From a virus (lineage: Duplodnaviria; Caudoviricetes): 64,000 bases of DNA. Below, piece after piece: positions 27,221 to 60,170 of this stretch. The stretch is from IMG/VR virus record IMGVR_UViG_3300021960_000017. One strand, given 5' to 3'. Each line of letters begins with the position of its first letter. The first letter of the stretch is position 1. Below the pieces are notes generated by a model. It was not told where the DNA came from and ran no database searches. It saw only the letters and a list, made by a program, of their open reading frames with translations. The position numbers and the translations under genes are program-made.

Positions 27221-28263
27221 TGTTTGTGTCGGGTACTATAGAAGATTGCTTTACAATGCAATTTTTTGACATTTTATCAGCATATGCAAAAGCAAATAAT
27301 ATCAATATTGATACAGATAAAAAGTTTTATCTAATAGATCATGTTACAGATGATTATCCCCCTGGCTATGATCATTACTTTGTTGAAAATGGAAATGAGC
27401 ATTTATCTGTCTTAGGAAAAGCAAAACGTCTAGTAGACGAACAAAAAGCAGATTTACTATATGGGAGTTATCTGCATAAAAAGCATCCCTTATTTGATAG
27501 AACTATTAGTATGGCTGGAAGTACTAATCTTTCCAATATTTTTTATACAAGTCCTTTTTATTTTACTAGTTTGTTATTTAAAAAACAACATCGCGATAAA
27601 AATTTAACTTTTATAAATGGCGAAAACAGAAGTGTACGACATTATTTTTTAGATCAAGTTAGCAAATATATGGATTTAGTAATTAACAATAGTCAGTCAA
27701 CAATCAAAACAAATCTAACTGGATATTATAATAATGCTGATAATATCTTTGCAAATTATTGTAACAATTTATATGACATAGATAATTCACCTACCAATCA
27801 TATTAGTACGAATATAATAAGTTTTGGAAAATTTGGTCAAACCAGATTAAGTTATGAACCTTTGCCAGAGTATTTTACAAGTCGTTGTATGGTTTATCCA
27901 GAAACTACCTTTTATAACTGGGAAATATTTATTACTGAAAAAACATGGAAATGTGTAAAAGCAAAAACACACTGGATTATATTTGCAGGTGCAGGTAGTT
28001 ATGAAGTAATGCGTGAAGTAGGATTAAGGAGCATTATAGAACTATGTCCAGATTCTATGAATGACTTTGACAGTATCGAAGATCATATCCTTAGAATAGA
28101 AAAAATTAGTAAATGTTGTGAATATATTTCTAATAACAGTAGCATATTTGATAGTTCTGAAGCACATAATATGTTAGAATTAAATTATGAAAATTTCCAT
28201 AATCCATTATTAAGTGTGGAACGTTGCGTAAAACCCTTTATTGATAGGTATATAAGCACATGA
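27220..28263 (+). CDS. GT10-like protein (paralog of 14139..15128)
   Basis: FINGENR, VYPETT...FITEKTWK..KAKTHWIIFAG. Confidence 0.55.
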   Translation: MFVSGTIEDCFTMQFFDILSAYAKANNINIDTDKKFYLIDHVTDDYPPGYDHYFVENGNEHLSVLGKAKRLVDEQKADLLYGSYLHKKHPLFDRTISMAGSTNLSNIFYTSPFYFTSLLFKKQHRDKNLTFINGENRSVRHYFLDQVSKYMDLVINNSQSTIKTNLTGYYNNADNIFANYCNNLYDIDNSPTNHISTNIISFGKFGQTRLSYEPLPEYFTSRCMVYPETTFYNWEIFITEKTWKCVKAKTHWIIFAGAGSYEVMREVGLRSIIELCPDSMNDFDSIEDHILRIEKISKCCEYISNNSSIFDSSEAHNMLELNYENFHNPLLSVERCVKPFIDRYIST

Positions 28264-28823
28264 TTGACTTGCCTGATATTGATATAGACTTTAAAAATAG
28301 ATCTGATATTTTAAAGTTTATAGAGCATACACCTGCAAGATTAGAGACTGGCAGGCAGCATAACACTGGTGTATACTTTACTGACATACCCAGTGCAGGT
28401 GATGGTATGAGTACCTTTGATCACAAGCAAGCGGAACAACTGGGTTACTTTAAATTAGATTTGCTCAATGTAAGCGTATATGATCAGGTAAGAGACGAAG
28501 TACATTTAGTAGAATTAATGACTACAGAACCTCGGTGGAATAGACTCTGGGAAGATAGGGAGTTTTGTGAACAAATTGTACACATTGGTAATCATTATGA
28601 TTTAATTAAACAAATGAAGCCAGACAGTATACCCAGGATGGCTATGTTTTTAGCAGTGATGCGGCCAGGTAAAGCACACTTGCGTAACAAACCCTGGGCG
28701 GAAATTGCCAAAACTGTCTGGCAGCGACCTGAAAACGACAAATACTTTTTTAAGAAATCACACAGTGTAAGTTATGCACATCTTGTAGTCGTGCACATGA
28801 ATTTACTTGACTCGCTTAACTAG
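28260..28823 (+). CDS. minimal DNA polymerase III alpha (DnaE)-like protein, 187 aa
   Basis: PDIDIDF, HNTGVYF, FKLDLL, LAVMRPG, FKKSHSVSYA. Confidence 0.85.
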   Translation: MIDLPDIDIDFKNRSDILKFIEHTPARLETGRQHNTGVYFTDIPSAGDGMSTFDHKQAEQLGYFKLDLLNVSVYDQVRDEVHLVELMTTEPRWNRLWEDREFCEQIVHIGNHYDLIKQMKPDSIPRMAMFLAVMRPGKAHLRNKPWAEIAKTVWQRPENDKYFFKKSHSVSYAHLVVVHMNLLDSLN

Positions 28824-34878: not shown

Positions 34879-35491
34879 TAACACCGGTGGCGGATTAATT
34901 TGTGATTTACTAAATCATAAGCACACTTGGTCTGATAGTTATAAAATTTCAAATATAGAACATAATGTTTTTAAACAAACTGATACTCCGACTATATCTA
35001 CTAAGATATCAGACCTTGACATGTGGAATAAAGTTTCAAAAAAATATAAAAACTCTAACCAATGGTACGGAACACATGTTCATCCTAGTGCTATTCCCAA
35101 TCTAAATGACTTTGAAGAAGTATTAATTATAACAACTACTGGTCGTGACAGTAAATTATATAGATGGTTAAGGTATTACTACGGGTGGTTTTATAGTGTT
35201 GAACCCAATTGGATTGAAGATGATAACTTAGAACACATTGACAAAATTAGAGAAATGGCAAAAAATGTATTCATTGAATTCTCAGGATGGAAAGATTATC
35301 CATGTGTTGAGTTTTCAGATATAGTGTCTGGAAAATTTGTAACTGAGAGAAATCTCAATGTTGAAAGATTCAATGATTGGCAATCTAAAAATCAGTTTTT
35401 GTTTAATAGCTCTATTAACAAATGGGGTGTTTTAAGATTTGATGAAGCAGAATATGAAATAACTACTGGGCTAGCATACAAGTATCATTAA
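34856..35491 (+). CDS. P-loop/sulfotransferase-like hypothetical protein
   Basis: N-terminal FSNNTGGGLICDLL; GTHVHP. Confidence 0.5.
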   Translation: MKLVCFSNNTGGGLICDLLNHKHTWSDSYKISNIEHNVFKQTDTPTISTKISDLDMWNKVSKKYKNSNQWYGTHVHPSAIPNLNDFEEVLIITTTGRDSKLYRWLRYYYGWFYSVEPNWIEDDNLEHIDKIREMAKNVFIEFSGWKDYPCVEFSDIVSGKFVTERNLNVERFNDWQSKNQFLFNSSINKWGVLRFDEAEYEITTGLAYKYH

Positions 35492-37181
35492 GATACTTGT
35501 CTAGTCTATAGCCCTTTGCTTCCCAACAGTCAATATAGCGTGTGCCGTTAGTCATTCGTATCTTGCCTGATCCTACAATAACATCGTGGTCTCTGTAGCC
35601 AAAGGGCTTCTTAATAGTTACGTCTACATATTCACTGTTGCCTACACCTAGCGTAACAAATGTAACATATCTTCCTTGCTCCCCCTTGAATACACGGCCG
35701 TTTGCTACTAGTCCTGCAAAGTTTACACGGTCCAGATAGGTTTCTTGTACAAACATATTGGGCATAAACTCTGGCTGTGACCAATAGCCATTGCGTTTGT
35801 ATTGTGTTACGGGAGATTCACATACACCGTTTTCGTATCCTAGTTCACGCAGGTCCCAGCCTGCTGTTTTTGCTTCCTGTTTGTGCACCCAGCGTTTATA
35901 TGATCCCTGGCAATGTTTGAGTGCTGCTTGCCAGAACTTCATAGGATTGTGTGCTTTTTGATATGCCAGTGCCCAGATAAGTCTGCCCAGGTTTACAGCA
36001 TGAGCACGACATAAACCAAAGTTGCCCAGCCCATATAACTCTTGTATAATTGCTTCCTTGTCATCATGCTCGCCCATGCGAGTCATAAACTCCATTACAC
36101 GCTCTTCATCTTTTTTAGCAAATGCCCGTCTGTACATGTCTGCTTCATACAAGTCACAACCTATGAGTTTGGCTATTTTGCGTATAGCATCGTCTTCATA
36201 TACAATAGTGTCCTCCAGTCTGTTCTCTGTCCAGTCCTGGAAAAAACTTGCCTTTTGTCTGCCAGTGGTTGCAACAGGGCGTATAAGTGCTGTAGCAAAT
36301 ACACAGTCTGCTTTTGATTGAGGTTGTATTGCACGGAATAGGCGGCGCATTGCAGGGGACTCCGCTTGTGTTACACCAATTACATCGCCTCTGCATAGCA
36401 GTTGACTTGTCTCAAAGTCTTGTTCTGGATATGCTTCCAGTGGTGTGTCAGGGTCTATTTCTATAAGTTGGCTTAGTCCACGGTTAGCCAGTATGTCTAT
36501 TTTAAGGTGCTCTAGATCTTCTACTTCACGTTTGTCTAATAATATTTGATTGTCTTTGTTGAATAAACTCTTGGGTAGTTTTCTTTCAAATACAAGAACA
36601 CCACCACAGTGTTTGCTGATACTACGTTTTTTGCCTATTAGTTTTCTTTCTATTCTCATGGCCTCTTCCTTGTCAATGTCTAAATCTTCATAACGAAAAT
36701 TGCGAGGAAGTCTACCAGACGCACCTAGACGGCGTGCCGCTTCTCTACGTGCACTGCGCTCCTTGTATAGCACATAGTTACTGATTCTTGCTGAACGTTC
36801 TGGCCAATTTGCAAAGATACGTTGCATGACAGTGTCCTGTTGCCAATGCGGAAAGTCTATGTCTACGTCTGGTAGATCATCCCTCAGTGGATTTAAGAAA
36901 CGTGCAACCGGTATTTGCCACCTTATGGGATCAACGTCTGTTATTCCTAGAAGATAACAGACAAGACTAGACCCTGCCGAACCCCGAGTCATATGTGTAA
37001 TGTCCTCGGTCAGAGCTAATACGTCACAAATTGTTAGGAAATAATCAGTAAAGCGAAGTTTGAGTATAATCTCAAGTTCTTCGACTAGTCTATCGTGGTA
37101 CTCTTGAGCCTCTGGTATGTGCCTTACAAACCTGCCAAGTAGCCTATCTAATTGAGCCTTCGCGTCTTTTGGTAATTTCAT
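35463..37181 (-). CDS. dnaE: compact DnaE-like DNA polymerase III alpha lacking the PHP domain
   Basis: RGSAGSSLVCYLLGIT, PDVDIDF, HCGGV, KIDIL, CRAHAV, C-terminal OB fold; 572 aa. Confidence 0.88.
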   Translation of the reverse strand: MKLPKDAKAQLDRLLGRFVRHIPEAQEYHDRLVEELEIILKLRFTDYFLTICDVLALTEDITHMTRGSAGSSLVCYLLGITDVDPIRWQIPVARFLNPLRDDLPDVDIDFPHWQQDTVMQRIFANWPERSARISNYVLYKERSARREAARRLGASGRLPRNFRYEDLDIDKEEAMRIERKLIGKKRSISKHCGGVLVFERKLPKSLFNKDNQILLDKREVEDLEHLKIDILANRGLSQLIEIDPDTPLEAYPEQDFETSQLLCRGDVIGVTQAESPAMRRLFRAIQPQSKADCVFATALIRPVATTGRQKASFFQDWTENRLEDTIVYEDDAIRKIAKLIGCDLYEADMYRRAFAKKDEERVMEFMTRMGEHDDKEAIIQELYGLGNFGLCRAHAVNLGRLIWALAYQKAHNPMKFWQAALKHCQGSYKRWVHKQEAKTAGWDLRELGYENGVCESPVTQYKRNGYWSQPEFMPNMFVQETYLDRVNFAGLVANGRVFKGEQGRYVTFVTLGVGNSEYVDVTIKKPFGYRDHDVIVGSGKIRMTNGTRYIDCWEAKGYRLDKYLNDTCMLAQ

Positions 37182-37256
37182 TGCCTTTGTTTGCCTAAAT
37201 GCCTAAAGTTTTCGTTTTTTGCCTAAGTCATTACTGAGTAATGACGTTTTTATTTA
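37182..37256 (-). promoter_or_regulatory. late promoter + palindrome + 4x (T/A)AGGCA leader of the dnaE-like gene
   Basis: TAAATA 37251-37256; GTCATTACT-N-AGTAATGAC 37227-37245; repeats at 37220, 37200, 37192, 37182. Confidence 0.65.
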
Positions 37257-37289
37257 GCAATCAAGGCCAACAAATTTAATTTTTTTGAT

Positions 37290-37598
37290 TTATAATAGTT
37301 TCTTTTTTAGGATTTGGCGCACATCGTCATCTGAAAACTTAATATGCCAAGTGCCATTAAATGTTACATAATCAACATTTGTCAAATATGCATAGTCTTT
37401 ATTATCTGTTGTCATGGTACTGTATTGAAACAGTTCAGATAATATTAAATCTTTATACCTGATAGTGTTTATTTTGATATAACTATCAGAGTGTGTTCTA
37501 TAATTTTTTCCGTAAAAATGTAATTTTACTTCAGTAGGTGATATTTCTTCACGCTTTATATAAAATGGACCTATAGTTTCAAATTCAAATTCTATCAT
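37290..37598 (-). CDS. hypothetical protein
   Basis: 102-aa ORF coupled to the upstream gene. Confidence 0.6.
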   Translation of the reverse strand: MIEFEFETIGPFYIKREEISPTEVKLHFYGKNYRTHSDSYIKINTIRYKDLILSELFQYSTMTTDNKDYAYLTNVDYVTFNGTWHIKFSDDDVRQILKKKLL

Positions 37599-38236
37599 TT
37601 ATATCTCGTTAATATTAAAACACTTCTGCGAGGATACTTACCACTAAAGTTTGCACTTACGTGAAAACGGTTTCTAGGCCAAGTCATTGCTGTACCCAAA
37701 GTCCAATGATGTATAAAGTCTACAGTAAACCCTGATAATTTATTATAGTCTAAATGTGTAAGGTACGTGTAATCAGTTTTGTCAAATGGTGTGTTGTCTA
37801 GACCGTATTCTTCTCTAGTAGTTTGTTTATAAGTAGTAACACCTTTATTTCCTAAACCTGTTTCAGCATTAAACGAAACAGCTCGGTCACTGCTTTGATC
37901 AAAAATCAGTGTATAATAGGATTCCTCATCTACGTGCGTTAACGGAATAAGATAACTAGTAGCTATATTGTCATTTTTGTCATGTTCAATATAGCCATCA
38001 CTATGTACGCCACCTGCACCATAATCACTATTGATATTTACAGTAGTAATAACTTCATTATCAGGTAGTTTCGCTTGCAGTTGTTCAAGTTTATGAGCAA
38101 AAAAAGGCTGTGCATAGTGGCACATTGTTTGATAACGAAGGCCGTTGTTACGACTTAACTCTTTAGGAAGCACTGAGTCGTACCATAAAAACCATTCGCA
38201 TTCTTCTTGGGTAAAAAAGTTGGGTATCTGTTTCAT
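37595..38236 (-). CDS. 2OG-Fe(II) oxygenase-like protein
   Basis: VHSDG...SYLIPL...RFHVS...RRS. Confidence 0.65.
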   Translation of the reverse strand: MKQIPNFFTQEECEWFLWYDSVLPKELSRNNGLRYQTMCHYAQPFFAHKLEQLQAKLPDNEVITTVNINSDYGAGGVHSDGYIEHDKNDNIATSYLIPLTHVDEESYYTLIFDQSSDRAVSFNAETGLGNKGVTTYKQTTREEYGLDNTPFDKTDYTYLTHLDYNKLSGFTVDFIHHWTLGTAMTWPRNRFHVSANFSGKYPRRSVLILTRYK

Positions 38237-38850
38237 ATTGATTTAAGTTTATTACTGACCATATCAAATACTAAAGCGTTGCCTTGTGTAGACAAATGAT
38301 TGATAAGTCCAGGATATTTTTTTTGTATTTTAACTAAGTTGATTGCATGATCTTCGGTTATAAATTGTGGATCTACGTTTAGATTATTTACTACAACGCA
38401 AGGTACTGCGCCAATCTTAAGATTAATTTCTTTGCGGAGCAGCCTGTAAATATTATTTTGATACTGTTCATCAAAATGATAAAAGAAAAAGTTTCTTGCA
38501 GTTCTTAATGCAGTATTAAATGGATTCAGAAGATTCCACCATCTTGTGTAATGATACTCAATATCAGCTAACATTAAGTCTGCATTATGGTGTAGTTTAT
38601 CACTATAGTGTACTGGATGTTTTTTTGTATTAACTCTCAATGGCGAAGTGTGGCTAACAATAACACAATCGTAGTCGCTGATATTTTTAACAGATTCAAT
38701 TTGTTGTAGGATTTTATATTCACCAACGCCAGCTTGTGCAAGATTTGTAACTGTGTGTTGTTTAGCTATCAGATTTGGCCAGCCTGAATCATCGTTATAC
38801 TTTACCGACCAATCAGCCGCATAACTATCACCTATGATAAGTATTTTCAT
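38233..38850 (-). CDS. SGNH-like protein
   Basis: IIGDSYA, NLAQAGVGE, INHLSTQGN. Confidence 0.78.
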   Translation of the reverse strand: MKILIIGDSYAADWSVKYNDDSGWPNLIAKQHTVTNLAQAGVGEYKILQQIESVKNISDYDCVIVSHTSPLRVNTKKHPVHYSDKLHHNADLMLADIEYHYTRWWNLLNPFNTALRTARNFFFYHFDEQYQNNIYRLLRKEINLKIGAVPCVVVNNLNVDPQFITEDHAINLVKIQKKYPGLINHLSTQGNALVFDMVSNKLKSI

Positions 38851-42762: not shown

Positions 42763-43182
42763 ATGAGACATTGTTCAAGCGTATGGCAGGATCATCCTGG
42801 CATACATAAAGTAGATATCGATAAACTAAGTCCAATGAGTTGGCATGCAGATAACCGTTGGTACTGGCGAGATTTGCCACGCATAATGGATGACGGTTTG
42901 TGGTATCCATTACTATATTATAAATGTACACTAGACTGGTGGAACACAAGTTTCTACAAACGCAAAGGTTCACACGAAATGTGGACGCATATAAATCCTC
43001 CCCAAGTAAATGAAGATGGTATGATATGGGGCGTGTATATGGGCACAAACAGATTGAAATGTCTTAAGTTTATGTCGTATAATAGTGTTGATTGTATAGA
43101 ATGCAAAGGCCAGGCACAGTTAATCGAGCTAGGTGTATATTTAAGAGACAAGGATCCACTACACAATGCCGTTACAGTATGA
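42763..43182 (+). CDS. ParB/Srx-like domain protein
   Basis: IMDDGLWYPLL...VYMGTNRL..LKFMSY..VDCI. Confidence 0.5.
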   Translation: MRHCSSVWQDHPGIHKVDIDKLSPMSWHADNRWYWRDLPRIMDDGLWYPLLYYKCTLDWWNTSFYKRKGSHEMWTHINPPQVNEDGMIWGVYMGTNRLKCLKFMSYNSVDCIECKGQAQLIELGVYLRDKDPLHNAVTV

Positions 43183-43633
43183 AGAAATATGGCACCTGCT
43201 CACACTGGTTGACATTACAGAAACTGGACATACCAGAGGCACCGGACTATTAAGAAATCAACAACGTAATTTCGAAACTGTTCAGCAAGTAATAGGTATG
43301 CTAACACAGCCTTTTGGAATAGGGCCTCCTTCTAGTTACAAGTGGGGTAAAGTACATAGACGGTTTAAAGACACAGGCACGGTATGGGGCGAGGTCCATG
43401 ACTTTACTCAGGAAATGCTTGCAGATTTAAATGTGTGGTTGTGGCGTTTTGGTATAGAGCGTGAAGGTGTTTTTGATTTACATGAAAAATTTGACGGTAA
43501 AAATTTACTTAATGCGTTTGAAAATGTGCCTGTTATAACTGGATTAACAGAAAATGCAGTACTACAACCACCTGTGTTTAGTATATCCCCTAAACTACAA
43601 AATGTGCTATTAATATGTGAGACTAGGCGGTAA
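43166..43633 (+). CDS. hypothetical protein
   Basis: 155-aa ORF. Confidence 0.7.
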   Translation: MPLQYEEIWHLLTLVDITETGHTRGTGLLRNQQRNFETVQQVIGMLTQPFGIGPPSSYKWGKVHRRFKDTGTVWGEVHDFTQEMLADLNVWLWRFGIEREGVFDLHEKFDGKNLLNAFENVPVITGLTENAVLQPPVFSISPKLQNVLLICETRR

Positions 43634-43634
43634 C

Positions 43635-43734
43635 TAAATATGTATGATGCATTAGGCACAACTAGGCTCATTATAGGCAAAAAAATAGGCATACAATCAA
43701 GCATCACCCAAAGGAGTTGGTGAGACCGTAATCA
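43635..43734 (+). promoter_or_regulatory. late promoter + structured leader with 4x TAGGC
   Basis: TAAATA 43635-43640; TAGGC at 43653, 43663, 43674, 43686; GATGC/GCATC flanks; TCACC(C)AA-AGGAG-TTGGTGA hairpin. Confidence 0.65.
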
Positions 43735-43983
43735 ATGGCAGACATTGAAAAAGAAAGTTTAGAAGCACACGTAGAGTTGTGCTCTGAAAGGTATAAAGCA
43801 TTGCACGATAAACTCGATGCAGTAAATCTTCGTCTTGACAAACAAGACAAGACACTAACTCACATCGCTACTAGTATTAGCAAAATGGAAGAAGGACGCA
43901 ACAAGCAAGTAATGGCTTGGGGTGCAGGTATTATTGCTGCACTTGCTGCGGCAGTAGGCGTTTTACTTTTAAAAGTCCTTTAA
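43735..43983 (+). CDS. coiled-coil + C-terminal TM protein (XhlA/holin-like)
   Basis: Heptad region followed by WGAGIIAALAAAVGVLLL. Confidence 0.55.
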   Translation: MADIEKESLEAHVELCSERYKALHDKLDAVNLRLDKQDKTLTHIATSISKMEEGRNKQVMAWGAGIIAALAAAVGVLLLKVL

Positions 43984-57956: not shown

Positions 57957-59858
57957 ATGGCAACTATTAAAGCAACTATCACTAGTCTTGGTCTTAATGC
58001 ACTGGGTGGTGCAGTAAATGGTCAGGGTTTAAATAACCTAGGTAAAATTTTAAGTCAGCCTATGTCTAACCTTGGTGGATTTGGCGGTCAGATGGATGCC
58101 CAGGCTAAAATTGCAAATATAATTAAAACAGATTACGATACTCCAGCATTATTAAATGCTGGTGGTTTTAATCCATTAGTTTACCTTAGCAATGCATTAA
58201 CTGGTGTAGCAGATGAAGTAGGCAGCGCAACTAGTGATGGTCGTGGTGCTATTTCCGGATCACTAGGATCAGGTTTTCAAGCTCTAGATGGATCAGGTAT
58301 AGTAGATGCAATTAGTATACACACAGAGTACCTTAAAGGAAGTTATGGTGCTAATAGTATTATGCAGTGTTTTGTTGGTGTAGAAGCATTTTGCTTTATC
58401 AGTAAAGAAATGTACCAAACACTCGAAGGCGGTCTAGCAGCTCGTTTTGGTAGCGCATTTGCTGCGTTAAACAGTAGTTTACCAGCAAGTGAAACATTAT
58501 CAGCAGTAGATAGTACATTTTTAGCAAATAATAGTAACAGTGAAGTAGAGGAAATATTAGGTGGCGAATATGCCTTTACCAATTTTCTTGGTGTTAATAT
58601 AAACAACATCACAGACGCAATAACAAATGGTTTTAGTAATTTTATTACTGGTAATGTAAAAACAACTTTAGCACAACTTGCAGTTGATTTTACCAACCTT
58701 GGTAATGCGTATGATCTTACAGACATAGACAACTTTGGAAATCCCGGACAGATAGTAGACAGATTAATTAGTGTGGGTGCTGGTGATATTACGGGTGTAA
58801 TAGATGCTATGCAGGATATTGGTGGAAATCAATTACTTGCAAATGTTGGTAATTTATCCAGTAGCCAGTTTAACAGTCAATTAACAGATGCATTAAGTTT
58901 AATTACCAACTCTGAGATGATTGCAATAGCGCAACAAGCATTAGGTAGTAATGTTCCTAATTTGACTAGTTTGGCTGACTTAACTGATATAAGGAAAGTA
59001 TTACCAACGAGTTTTGATAATATTAGTCCTAATACTTTTACTCAACTAGTTGTTGAACTTAAAAATTTAAATATTGGAAATTTACAAACACCGCAACAAC
59101 TTGGTACATTACTCGGACGATTCGATTTTCCTGTAAGTTTGCCTACAATAGAAAATTCAACAGTATTAATTGACAATGACGCCGCTGCAAATATTAGAAC
59201 TAAGTTTTTAAATAAAAACTTTAAAGACATGAAAGTAAGTGATGCAATAGGGTCACTTGCGGGTGTTGGTATAAGAAACCCAATTACTAGGTTTACTAAT
59301 GCTATGACAGAAATGGCTAACGCTGGTGCATTTACTGCATTAAATGCTTTATATACTCGTCTTAATGCAGGGTTAAATGGAGATTATAATACAGGCGCTG
59401 TATATGGTGTAGATACTATTGATGATCCGGTAACCAGTATAAGTTATAATGACATGGATGCGTTTGTTAATGCTACACTTTCCCTTATTGGCGCAGAGAT
59501 AACCAGCATTGCGAGCACGGCTGCTTACAGTGATGCTTTTAATAGAGCCCGTGATGCAATTACAGAAATACAGCAAAAAATTTACGATGAAAGCATTACA
59601 TATATTCCTATGATGGATTTGCATTTAAATGATAGAAATAATGATCCTGTAAATGTATATGGTTTTGCGACAAGCATGGAGTCAAGAGTAGAAGACCCTG
59701 ATGCTTTAGATGTACTAAAAGGATTAGCAGAGGCGGCTAAATTACAGAATGATAAGTTTGGTAGCTATTGGGACGCATTTATAAGCGAAACCGTTAATAG
59801 AAACGCTGTTCAAACGCATTCAATAGACTGGATTGCAGAAGATAAAATAGAAATTTAA
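57957..59858 (+). CDS. putative tail/baseplate structural protein
   Basis: 633 aa, G/N/S/T-rich, immediately downstream of the PAAR gene. Confidence 0.55.
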   Translation: MATIKATITSLGLNALGGAVNGQGLNNLGKILSQPMSNLGGFGGQMDAQAKIANIIKTDYDTPALLNAGGFNPLVYLSNALTGVADEVGSATSDGRGAISGSLGSGFQALDGSGIVDAISIHTEYLKGSYGANSIMQCFVGVEAFCFISKEMYQTLEGGLAARFGSAFAALNSSLPASETLSAVDSTFLANNSNSEVEEILGGEYAFTNFLGVNINNITDAITNGFSNFITGNVKTTLAQLAVDFTNLGNAYDLTDIDNFGNPGQIVDRLISVGAGDITGVIDAMQDIGGNQLLANVGNLSSSQFNSQLTDALSLITNSEMIAIAQQALGSNVPNLTSLADLTDIRKVLPTSFDNISPNTFTQLVVELKNLNIGNLQTPQQLGTLLGRFDFPVSLPTIENSTVLIDNDAAANIRTKFLNKNFKDMKVSDAIGSLAGVGIRNPITRFTNAMTEMANAGAFTALNALYTRLNAGLNGDYNTGAVYGVDTIDDPVTSISYNDMDAFVNATLSLIGAEITSIASTAAYSDAFNRARDAITEIQQKIYDESITYIPMMDLHLNDRNNDPVNVYGFATSMESRVEDPDALDVLKGLAEAAKLQNDKFGSYWDAFISETVNRNAVQTHSIDWIAEDKIEI

Positions 59859-59893
59859 CAAATTTTTCCAGTATTACTTACATAAATAAACAC

Positions 59894-60170
59894 TGTAACG
59901 TCGAAGGGCGTTGAAAAACGTAATGGACATGGGGGCAGTACCCATCGTCTCCACCATAAGCACATGGCATTTGTAGTGTGTTTATGTGGGGACGAACCAG
60001 GATCGACATGCGTGGAGTATACAACTGGAGTTATCGGTAGGCGTGACCGTAAATCAGCAAAACAAAGTAAATGCAAACGATAATTTTGCATCTGAGGATT
60101 TTGCCCTAGCGGCATAATACCTATGGGCGTACAGGGCGCCTGGAAACAGAAGGGACTTAGGTCCCACCTG
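59894..60170 (+). ncRNA. ssrA: two-piece (circularly permuted) tmRNA
   Basis: Acceptor piece: T-arm ATGGG-GGCAGTA-CCCAT and CGTCTCC-A-CCA (ends 59956); hairpin intervening sequence 59957-59987; coding piece starts GGGGACG (59988) giving G3.U70; tag GCA AAC GAT...GCA TAA = ANDNFASEDFALAA at 60073-60117; outer ends approximate. Confidence 0.95.

Follow-up and report, generated by a model that had tools for sequence, protein, structure and literature searches.

The 64,000-nt stretch of DNA analysed here (hereafter the window) belongs to a large phage with genes for a DnaB-type helicase, a primase, a ribonucleotide reductase and a tmRNA, and a search for near-identical DNA in cultured phages found none. 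On its minus strand, an intergenic stretch of 108 bases precedes a dnaE-like gene, whose 572-aa product has a Pfam match beginning at residue 24 and aligns with phrog_405 from profile position 360; an ORF at 28260–28823 had no Pfam match. The three genes upstream of the dnaE-like gene (37290–38850, minus strand; 102, 213 and 205 aa) matched no family. An earlier note on this DNA had described the intergenic leader as TAAATA, a palindrome, three TAGGCA, one AAGGCA and then the ATG, and on the minus strand this proved correct to the base (Table 1), with five bases (AAAAC) separating TAAATA from the hairpin (predicted −8.2 kcal/mol) and the ATG (37181–37179) following directly on AAGGCA. Spacing of the four repeats, or words, is irregular (20, 8 and 10 nt; 21–23 and 11 nt in relatives), and the RNA beyond the hairpin is no more folded than shuffled sequences (z = 0.02). 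Because the AAGG of the last word ends only 2 nt from the ATG, too near for a normal Shine–Dalgarno (SD) sequence, the earlier remark that no canonical SD is present holds for the window, but not for most relatives, in which the homologous repeat is GAGGCAC, 4–7 nt from the ATG, and supplies an ordinary SD (GAGG).

Table 1. Positions of the leader elements and of the genes that they precede in the window.
Feature	Position	Strand	Remarks
TAAATA promoter-like hexamer	37251–37256	−	invariant in 30 non-redundant relatives; full TATAAATA in several
Hairpin GTCATTAC-TCA-GTAATGAC, 8 bp, loop UCA	37227–37245	−	the 19-nt palindrome of the earlier note
Repeat 1, UAGGCA	37220–37225	−	1 nt past the hairpin
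Repeat 2, UAGGCA	37200–37205	−	kept in the nearest relatives and the L030 clade
Repeat 3, UAGGCA, most conserved copy, UUUAGGCAAA	37192–37197	−	near-invariant columns in alignment A1
Repeat 4, AAGGCA, overlaps the ribosome-binding site	37182–37187	−	homologous to RAGGCA(C) of relatives
Five further NRGGCW copies, codons 8–25	37107–37160	−	AAGGCT 37160, TAGGCT 37146, TTGGCA 37138, AAGGCA 37125, GAGGCT 37112
DnaE-like protein gene, 572 aa, palm and fingers, without PHP domain	35463–37181	−	PF07733 7e-43, PF17657 1.5e-14
TAAATA promoter-like hexamer, second leader	43635–43640	+	kept in 32 distinct related leaders
Candidate helix P1, GAUGC 43646–43650/GCAUC 43701–43705, encloses four words	43646–43705	+	pairing conservation
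Candidate hairpin P2, CACC(C)-loop-GGUGAG	43705–43724	+	82% paired; A-U to G.U changes
82-aa coiled-coil protein, C-terminal membrane anchor, XhlA-like	43735–43983	+	phrog_2990 2e-5; phrog_1193 ('hemolysin' XhlA) 2.5e-4, weak

The same layout, TAAATA and four TAGGC, had also been reported at 43635–43734, and we could confirm it there on the plus strand, with TAGGCA at 43653, TAGGCT at 43663 and TAGGCA again at 43674 and 43686 (10–12 nt spacing) ahead of the ATG at 43735 of the XhlA-like gene. In 32 distinct relatives, whose upstream genes are as little as about 30% identical, this second leader is kept in the order TAAATA, GAUGCU, three to four words at 10–14 nt, AAUCAAGCAUC, CACC-loop-GGUGAG and AUG. 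Pairing in P1 reaches 95% across 20 sequences, which include U.G variants but hardly any covariation; GAUGCU/AGCAUC would enclose the loop that bears the words, and the variants GAUGCA/UGCAUC and GAUGCUAGA/UCUAGACAUC were identified by eye. P2 likewise has almost no covariation; its anti-SD-like strand would pair with the SD-like GGUGAG and could thereby occlude the ribosome site of the 82-aa gene. RNAalifold predicted no consensus structure for 20 XhlA-type leaders, and what points to P1 and P2 is conservation, few U.G changes and few by-eye variants, not solid covariation.

Several other details were seen around this leader. Within 43705–43734 (plus strand), the upstream AUCACC paired with the SD-like GGUGAG resembles the 16S anti-SD, an AAGGAG lies in the P2 loop 18 nt from the AUG of the 82-aa gene, and an in-frame mini-frame (GTG-AGA-CCG-TAA) stands just before that AUG. 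The gene upstream (43166–43633, plus strand) encodes a 155-aa protein (P0002) for which the searches gave neither a family nor a useful Atlas neighbour; it stays in synteny with the repeat leader and with the XhlA-like gene among relatives as distant as about 30% identity. In contigs G006 and G010, which are more distant, the XhlA-like gene stands without a repeat leader, and in more distant contigs the words are kept before the SSB gene (see below) and the dnaE-like gene but not before the XhlA-like gene.

To judge chance, word clusters were counted against a background, as the earlier note had proposed, in 'genome-wide' counts that cover the 64-kb window and partial relatives. TAGGCA as such is not enriched in the window (42 copies versus 40.2 in shuffles), but its clustering exceeds chance: same-strand clusters of at least three TAGGC within 60 nt occur only twice in the 64 kb on both strands, compared to 0.10 expected under a first-order Markov model, which produced two or more in 0.25% of 400 simulations. 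Both clusters are intergenic, directly 5′ of a start codon and in the orientation of the gene.

The same dnaE-like protein is present in 44 IMG/VR contigs (81–98% identity), in which the leader architecture is kept while the flanks diverge. The conserved order is (T/C)TAAATA or the full TATAAATA, a hairpin 2–6 nt further on, YYRGGCAC (always 0–3 nt past the hairpin), an A-rich spacer, UUUAGGCAAA, RAGGCA(C) and AUG. Every relative has a hairpin at this position, and the hairpin covaries strongly. Aligning the orthologous leaders, a check suggested in the earlier note, revealed 10 different outer 5-bp stems without a mispair (0/50 pair cells non-canonical) and 3–5 pair types per position, the relatives being not independent samples; one G.U pair on the minus strand occurs in the L020 lineage, and the loop varies freely (UCA, GAAA, ACU and others). 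Distant relatives (L099, L102 and L117) have a minimal, hairpin-less dnaE-like leader, TAAATACCAA-AAGGCA-AATA-TAGGCAC-ACATT-ATG, and that of G010 reads TATAAATAAATGCCC-AAGGCA-AAT-GAGGCA-TTT-ATG.

A hairpin of this kind could also be an intrinsic terminator for plus-strand (antisense) transcription, to which the repeats would be unrelated, and a pattern scan indeed calls the stem at 37227–37245 followed by GTTTTTATTT on the plus strand. We nevertheless consider this highly improbable, since the T-run simply complements the conserved TAAATAAAA, no plus-strand unit ends at the hairpin (1.7 kb separate it from the end of the nearest plus-strand gene), and the minus-strand G.U pair of the L020 lineage would be C.A on the plus strand. 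Moreover, a terminator leaves the words and the other leaders unexplained.

The words do not stop at the start codon. Five coding NRGGCW copies, overlooked in the earlier note, occupy the first 75 nt of the dnaE-like gene. Gly16 is encoded by GGC and Arg20 by AGG in 20/20 relatives, even though AGG accounts for 8% of the Arg codons in the phage and other conserved Arg codons, as well as neighbouring synonymous sites, vary. This fixation of GGC and of the rare AGG argues that the in-frame words are kept and that the module probably extends to about +62.

A third class of leader, larger than the other two, emerged when the 203-kb and 132-kb contigs of two relatives were scanned for TAAATA followed by two words. 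It precedes the gene for a 328-aa protein with a full-length match to the phage single-strand-binding protein (SSB) family phrog_1192 (2e-64), and the relatives G001 and G002 together with 62 distinct SSB leaders (SSB 63–100% identity) have the same promoter–hairpin–word–SD layout. The SSB leaders follow the plan TTGACx-N17-TATACT (sigma-70-like), strong hairpin, two to four words, SD and AUGGCA; TAAATA often lies inside the spacer of the sigma-70-like promoter, and the −10 box forms the 5′ arm of the hairpin, which has many sense-strand G.U pairs. Given this overlap, transcripts from the early-type promoter would be without the hairpin and those from TAAATA would carry it. Both arrangements, TAAATA in the TTGACx-N17-TATACT spacer and the −10 box as 5′ arm, can be seen in leaders L267/L268 and L263 (G001, G002). 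Most SSB leaders have a separate strong, well-placed AAGGAG, so the words do not serve as ribosome site in every case. Within the window both copies of the module precede other genes, the phage's own SSB gene being located outside it.

The SSB of this clade matches phrog_224 at only 8e-5 and belongs to another subfamily than T4 gp32; it gave no Pfam match, and a PDB sequence search returned only low-complexity matches. Its family is common to the jumbo phages PA5oct and RaK2/121Q. In the cultured phages with the same SSB family (PA5oct, 58% identity; Vibrio phage 2.275.O, 49%; 121Q, 45%), SSB leaders are long and the word is absent, so that it does not simply travel with the SSB family. Because the same module also stands before the SSB gene in relatives, the putative regulon would comprise three genes, for SSB, the DnaE-like protein and the XhlA-like membrane protein. 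The earlier note had proposed an undescribed phage regulon; a small regulon is supported and can be extended to this gp32-like SSB gene, with no Rfam match.

The three leader classes share an identical word logo, [U>A>C]AGGCA[C/A], in which the base after GGC is A in 87–96% of copies, within leaders composed of 42–45% A and 17–25% U. Relative to shuffles, AGGCW is enriched 27-fold in SSB leaders, 31-fold in dnaE-like leaders and 32-fold in XhlA-like leaders (151 vs 5.5, 59 vs 1.9 and 54 vs 1.7 across the three classes). In the 203-kb relative, intergenic word clusters occur only in three leaders (dnaE and XhlA by the first pattern, SSB by the second). Other word pairs in relatives G001–G010, among them the dense cluster L125 inside a 937-aa ORF and L351, fall within coding sequence or at the ends of genes and resemble chance occurrences. 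An IMG/VR-wide scan for three AGGCAC words retrieved, among the matches listed, mostly coding tandem repeats, and only L162 and L251 (XhlA-type leaders), perhaps also L208 and L230, were of the leader kind. In four unrelated IMG/VR contigs (L155, L178, L242 and L238), TAGGCAC- or GAGGCAC-type iteron arrays with a fixed 9–12 bp period and some inverted blocks were found; these resemble iterons at the replication origins of other, unrelated small elements and have no relation to the dnaE-like leader.

As an alternative to an RNA element, the earlier note had raised a phased DNA operator, in which a DNA-binding regulator of the phage would occupy the direct repeats and either block or activate the TAAATA promoter. 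The 10–14 bp between XhlA-type repeats, near one helical turn, would suit such an operator, and similar TAGGCAC iterons exist in unrelated viral contigs. On the other hand, the 20, 8 and 10 nt of the dnaE-like leader (21–23 and 11 nt in relatives) are not phased, the repeats lie downstream of the start, up to and past the AUG into coding sequence and always in sense orientation, and the adjoining helices covary and tolerate G.U pairs, which is relevant only in RNA. We therefore disfavour this alternative as very unlikely. The covarying hairpin, the G.U pairs and the presence of the leader in metatranscriptome contigs (see below) instead support the view that the two sites in the window are copies of one conserved cis element that would act at the RNA level on the sense strand.

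Logan contigs from four metatranscriptome runs of four studies (about 98.5% identical to the window) cover the leader and the 5′ part of the dnaE-like gene; the words are thus present in RNA. These contigs end at 37220, 37221, 37223 and 37236, 15–36 nt downstream of TAAATA, and none extends further upstream. Contig cover is absent over 37243–38300 and the three upstream genes, which is not evidence of silence; in DNA runs, 98–99% of the whole stretch is present. From these ends there is a weak hint at either a message start at the hairpin or shortly before it, or processing within the first word; contigs do not discriminate between the two.

Processing is central to one rival explanation, in which a sequence-specific endoribonuclease would cut at the words and so, in the manner of T4 RegB, remove the protective hairpin and ribosome site, shutting the messages off; RegB, which cuts GGAG, provides the precedent (PMC3014915). 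Consistent with cleavage, in three studies the contig ends fall within the first word, 4–7 nt 3′ of the hairpin, and one of these contigs passes at 37221 straight into adapter sequence, suggesting many fragments that end there. However, these are contigs, not reads, so their ends are soft; the fourth runs on to the exact palindrome centre (37236), and low coverage near a true 5′ end or a reverse transcriptase stop at the hairpin would look alike. No nuclease candidate is known, and we regard cleavage as unlikely.

Upstream, the promoter-like element resembles that of T4-type late genes, TATAAATA, which is located about 6 nt before the transcript start and read by gp55. Its TAAATA core does not vary among relatives, some of which have the full octamer, and the dnaE-like leader would be classed as 'late' solely on this likeness to the T4 late promoter TATAAATA. 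In the window TAAATA also precedes many genes, among them the phage tmRNA gene (13 nt before the match), with a modest enrichment before genes (15/67 versus 8–12 for control words, with crude gene calls). The tmRNA (59852–60160, plus strand) is permuted and of alphaproteobacterial type (RF04321, 120.8 bits; RF01849, 112 bits), which hints at an alphaproteobacterial host; the box 13 nt before the RF04321 match is CATAAATA.

In T4, binding of gp32 to its own message involves first a structure at the 5′ end and next the unfolded repeats that overlie the ribosome site, and gp43 binds a hairpin and its own ribosome site (PMC3014915, PMC535899). Since SSB and polymerase leaders here similarly combine a 5′ structure with open, word-bearing RNA over the ribosome site, our preferred reading, to which we give roughly even chances, is a translational operator on the mRNA, composed of the 5′ hairpin and of single-stranded UAGGCA words over the ribosome site and shared by a small regulon. 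Transcription would start a few bases after TAAATA, so that the message would begin with a stable hairpin. An unstructured A-rich tract would then display three to four (U/A/C)AGGCA(C/A) words, the last of them covering the ribosome-binding site, and codons 1–25 of the dnaE-like gene would probably add between two and five copies. One single-strand-binding factor may start at the junction of hairpin and first word and then occupy further words; once bound, it would keep ribosomes from their site and, jointly with the 5′ hairpin, influence how long the mRNA lasts. Protein binding, the identity of the binder and the direction of the effect (repression) are points that we infer. Against an operator, the XhlA-like target has no evident link to replication.

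Words and hairpin could alternatively serve as a protein-independent expression element, the 5′ hairpin guarding against 5′-end-dependent decay and the AGG words acting as standby or STAB-SD-like sites for ribosomes, so that a few messages gain in translation and stability. Every word does hold the SD core AGG (the last copy being the SD of most dnaE-like leaders), the tract lacks structure and is rich in A and C, the hairpin lies at the predicted 5′ end, and SSB would be needed in large amounts, as established for T4 gp32 (PMC3014915). Yet pairing with the anti-SD accounts for AGG and not for the equally invariant CA(C/A), other genes in the window use plain AGGAG or GGAG without words, most SSB leaders already have their well-placed AAGGAG, and words are kept inside coding sequence too. 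We consider such an element possible but rather improbable.

Returning to the operator reading, the leading candidate for a reader of the words would be the phage SSB, which might report free SSB as T4 gp32 does; by analogy with that system we put it forward tentatively, another phage or host RNA-binding protein being about equally likely. T4 gp32 is not sequence-specific, and the strict GGCA core would not be expected for a protein of its type, which counts against SSB as the reader, as does the absence of the word from PA5oct-type relatives. If SSB (or a partner) did read the UAGGCA words by the 5′ hairpin, free SSB and replication state would be coupled to the synthesis of SSB, a polymerase subunit and a membrane (possibly lysis-timing) protein, a proposal for which we claim a similarly limited probability. 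Among other possible readers, RRM_1 was not found in the five partial relatives, nor was CsrA (PF02599), for which control genomes did match, and a search for RegA (PF01818) gave no match in the partial relatives or in any control. In T4-type phages regA sits at the clamp-loader region; the ORFs around this region had no family match. A triple AGGCWA pattern, as for a decoy ncRNA, gave nothing in G001–G005.

The earlier note had inferred a shared cis-regulatory RNA read with TRAP- or CsrA-like logic. Its first part is upheld by the covariation, G.U pairs and RNA contigs; the likeness to TRAP and CsrA holds only as logic, their defining features being missing (GGC core instead of GGA or NAG, 3–4 copies, 2–14 nt spacers and no CsrA in the five partial relatives). 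Target leaders of CsrA/Rsm carry A(N)GGA words, typically in hairpin loops, with one over the SD. Like CsrA/RsmA leaders, the module has several copies of a short G-G word, one over the SD, which implies a multivalent reader, but its core is GGC, not GGA, and its words are in open RNA instead of hairpin loops. TRAP-type leaders have 9–11 (G/U)AG triplets 2–3 nt apart, unlike the three to four hexamer words of the module with 2–14 nt between them. The gene V protein of filamentous phages, which binds ssDNA, represses gene II translation via a preferred leader sequence and would thus parallel the role proposed here for SSB, as a phage ssDNA-binding protein doubling as translational repressor of a replication gene; it differs in its unrelated fold and phage, single target site and lack of a 5′ hairpin module. 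Two traits of the module, a hairpin no more than a few nt from the 5′ end and SD-like words at a distance from the start codon, recall stabiliser hairpins of the ompA type and STAB-SD elements, which have neither the conserved CA(C/A) extension nor a multi-gene set.

At gathering score, Rfam identified only the tmRNA in the window and neither leader matched, and at E up to 10 only chance-level matches were obtained in 37050–37350. The module appears to be a conserved element for RNA-level control in a clade of uncultured aquatic giant phages related to T4, and it matches no Rfam family. Textbook accounts of translational autoregulation of replication proteins are, to our knowledge, confined to T4 and its nearest kin. 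According to a review, T4-type phages further removed from it are without the known operator, and more study is called for (PMC3014915). The module described here is easily recognised and operator-like across hundreds of contigs of uncultured aquatic giant phages, and links three genes, not one. If our reading is true, co-regulated genes in uncultured phages could be located by a sequence-defined handle, and the module would offer a test case for the acquisition of RNA sequence specificity by an SSB-type or other protein, a hint that a small XhlA-like membrane protein is tied to replication status and a candidate new RNA family for Rfam.

Its closest precedent, by analogy, would be the autogenous translational operators of T4 genes 32 and 43, absent from the earlier note, like which the module may work without being a member. 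It resembles the gene 32 operator of T4, T2 and RB69 in its place in the 5′ leader of an SSB gene (here in relatives) and in its order of parts, a structured 5′ element ahead of short repeats in unfolded RNA that reach across the ribosome site; in T4 the message is long-lived (PMC3014915, PMC535899). It differs in that the T4 leader has a 5′ pseudoknot that nucleates binding and the module a simple covarying hairpin, for whose loops no conserved pseudoknot partner was seen with folding tools that cannot predict pseudoknots. Moreover, T4 repeats are UUAA(A) in an A+U-rich tract, as opposed to UAGGCA in an A-rich tract, and the module also serves two other genes and a different SSB subfamily (phrog_1192). 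With the gene 43 operator of T4 and RB69, the module shares the leader of a replicative polymerase and a hairpin some 40 nt upstream of the AUG, followed by a single-stranded part with the ribosome site (PMC3014915). Its polymerase, however, is DnaE-like and not of family B, its repeats are without counterpart there, and its hairpin loop is not conserved, whereas in T4 the loop UAAC is the determinant (PMC3014915).
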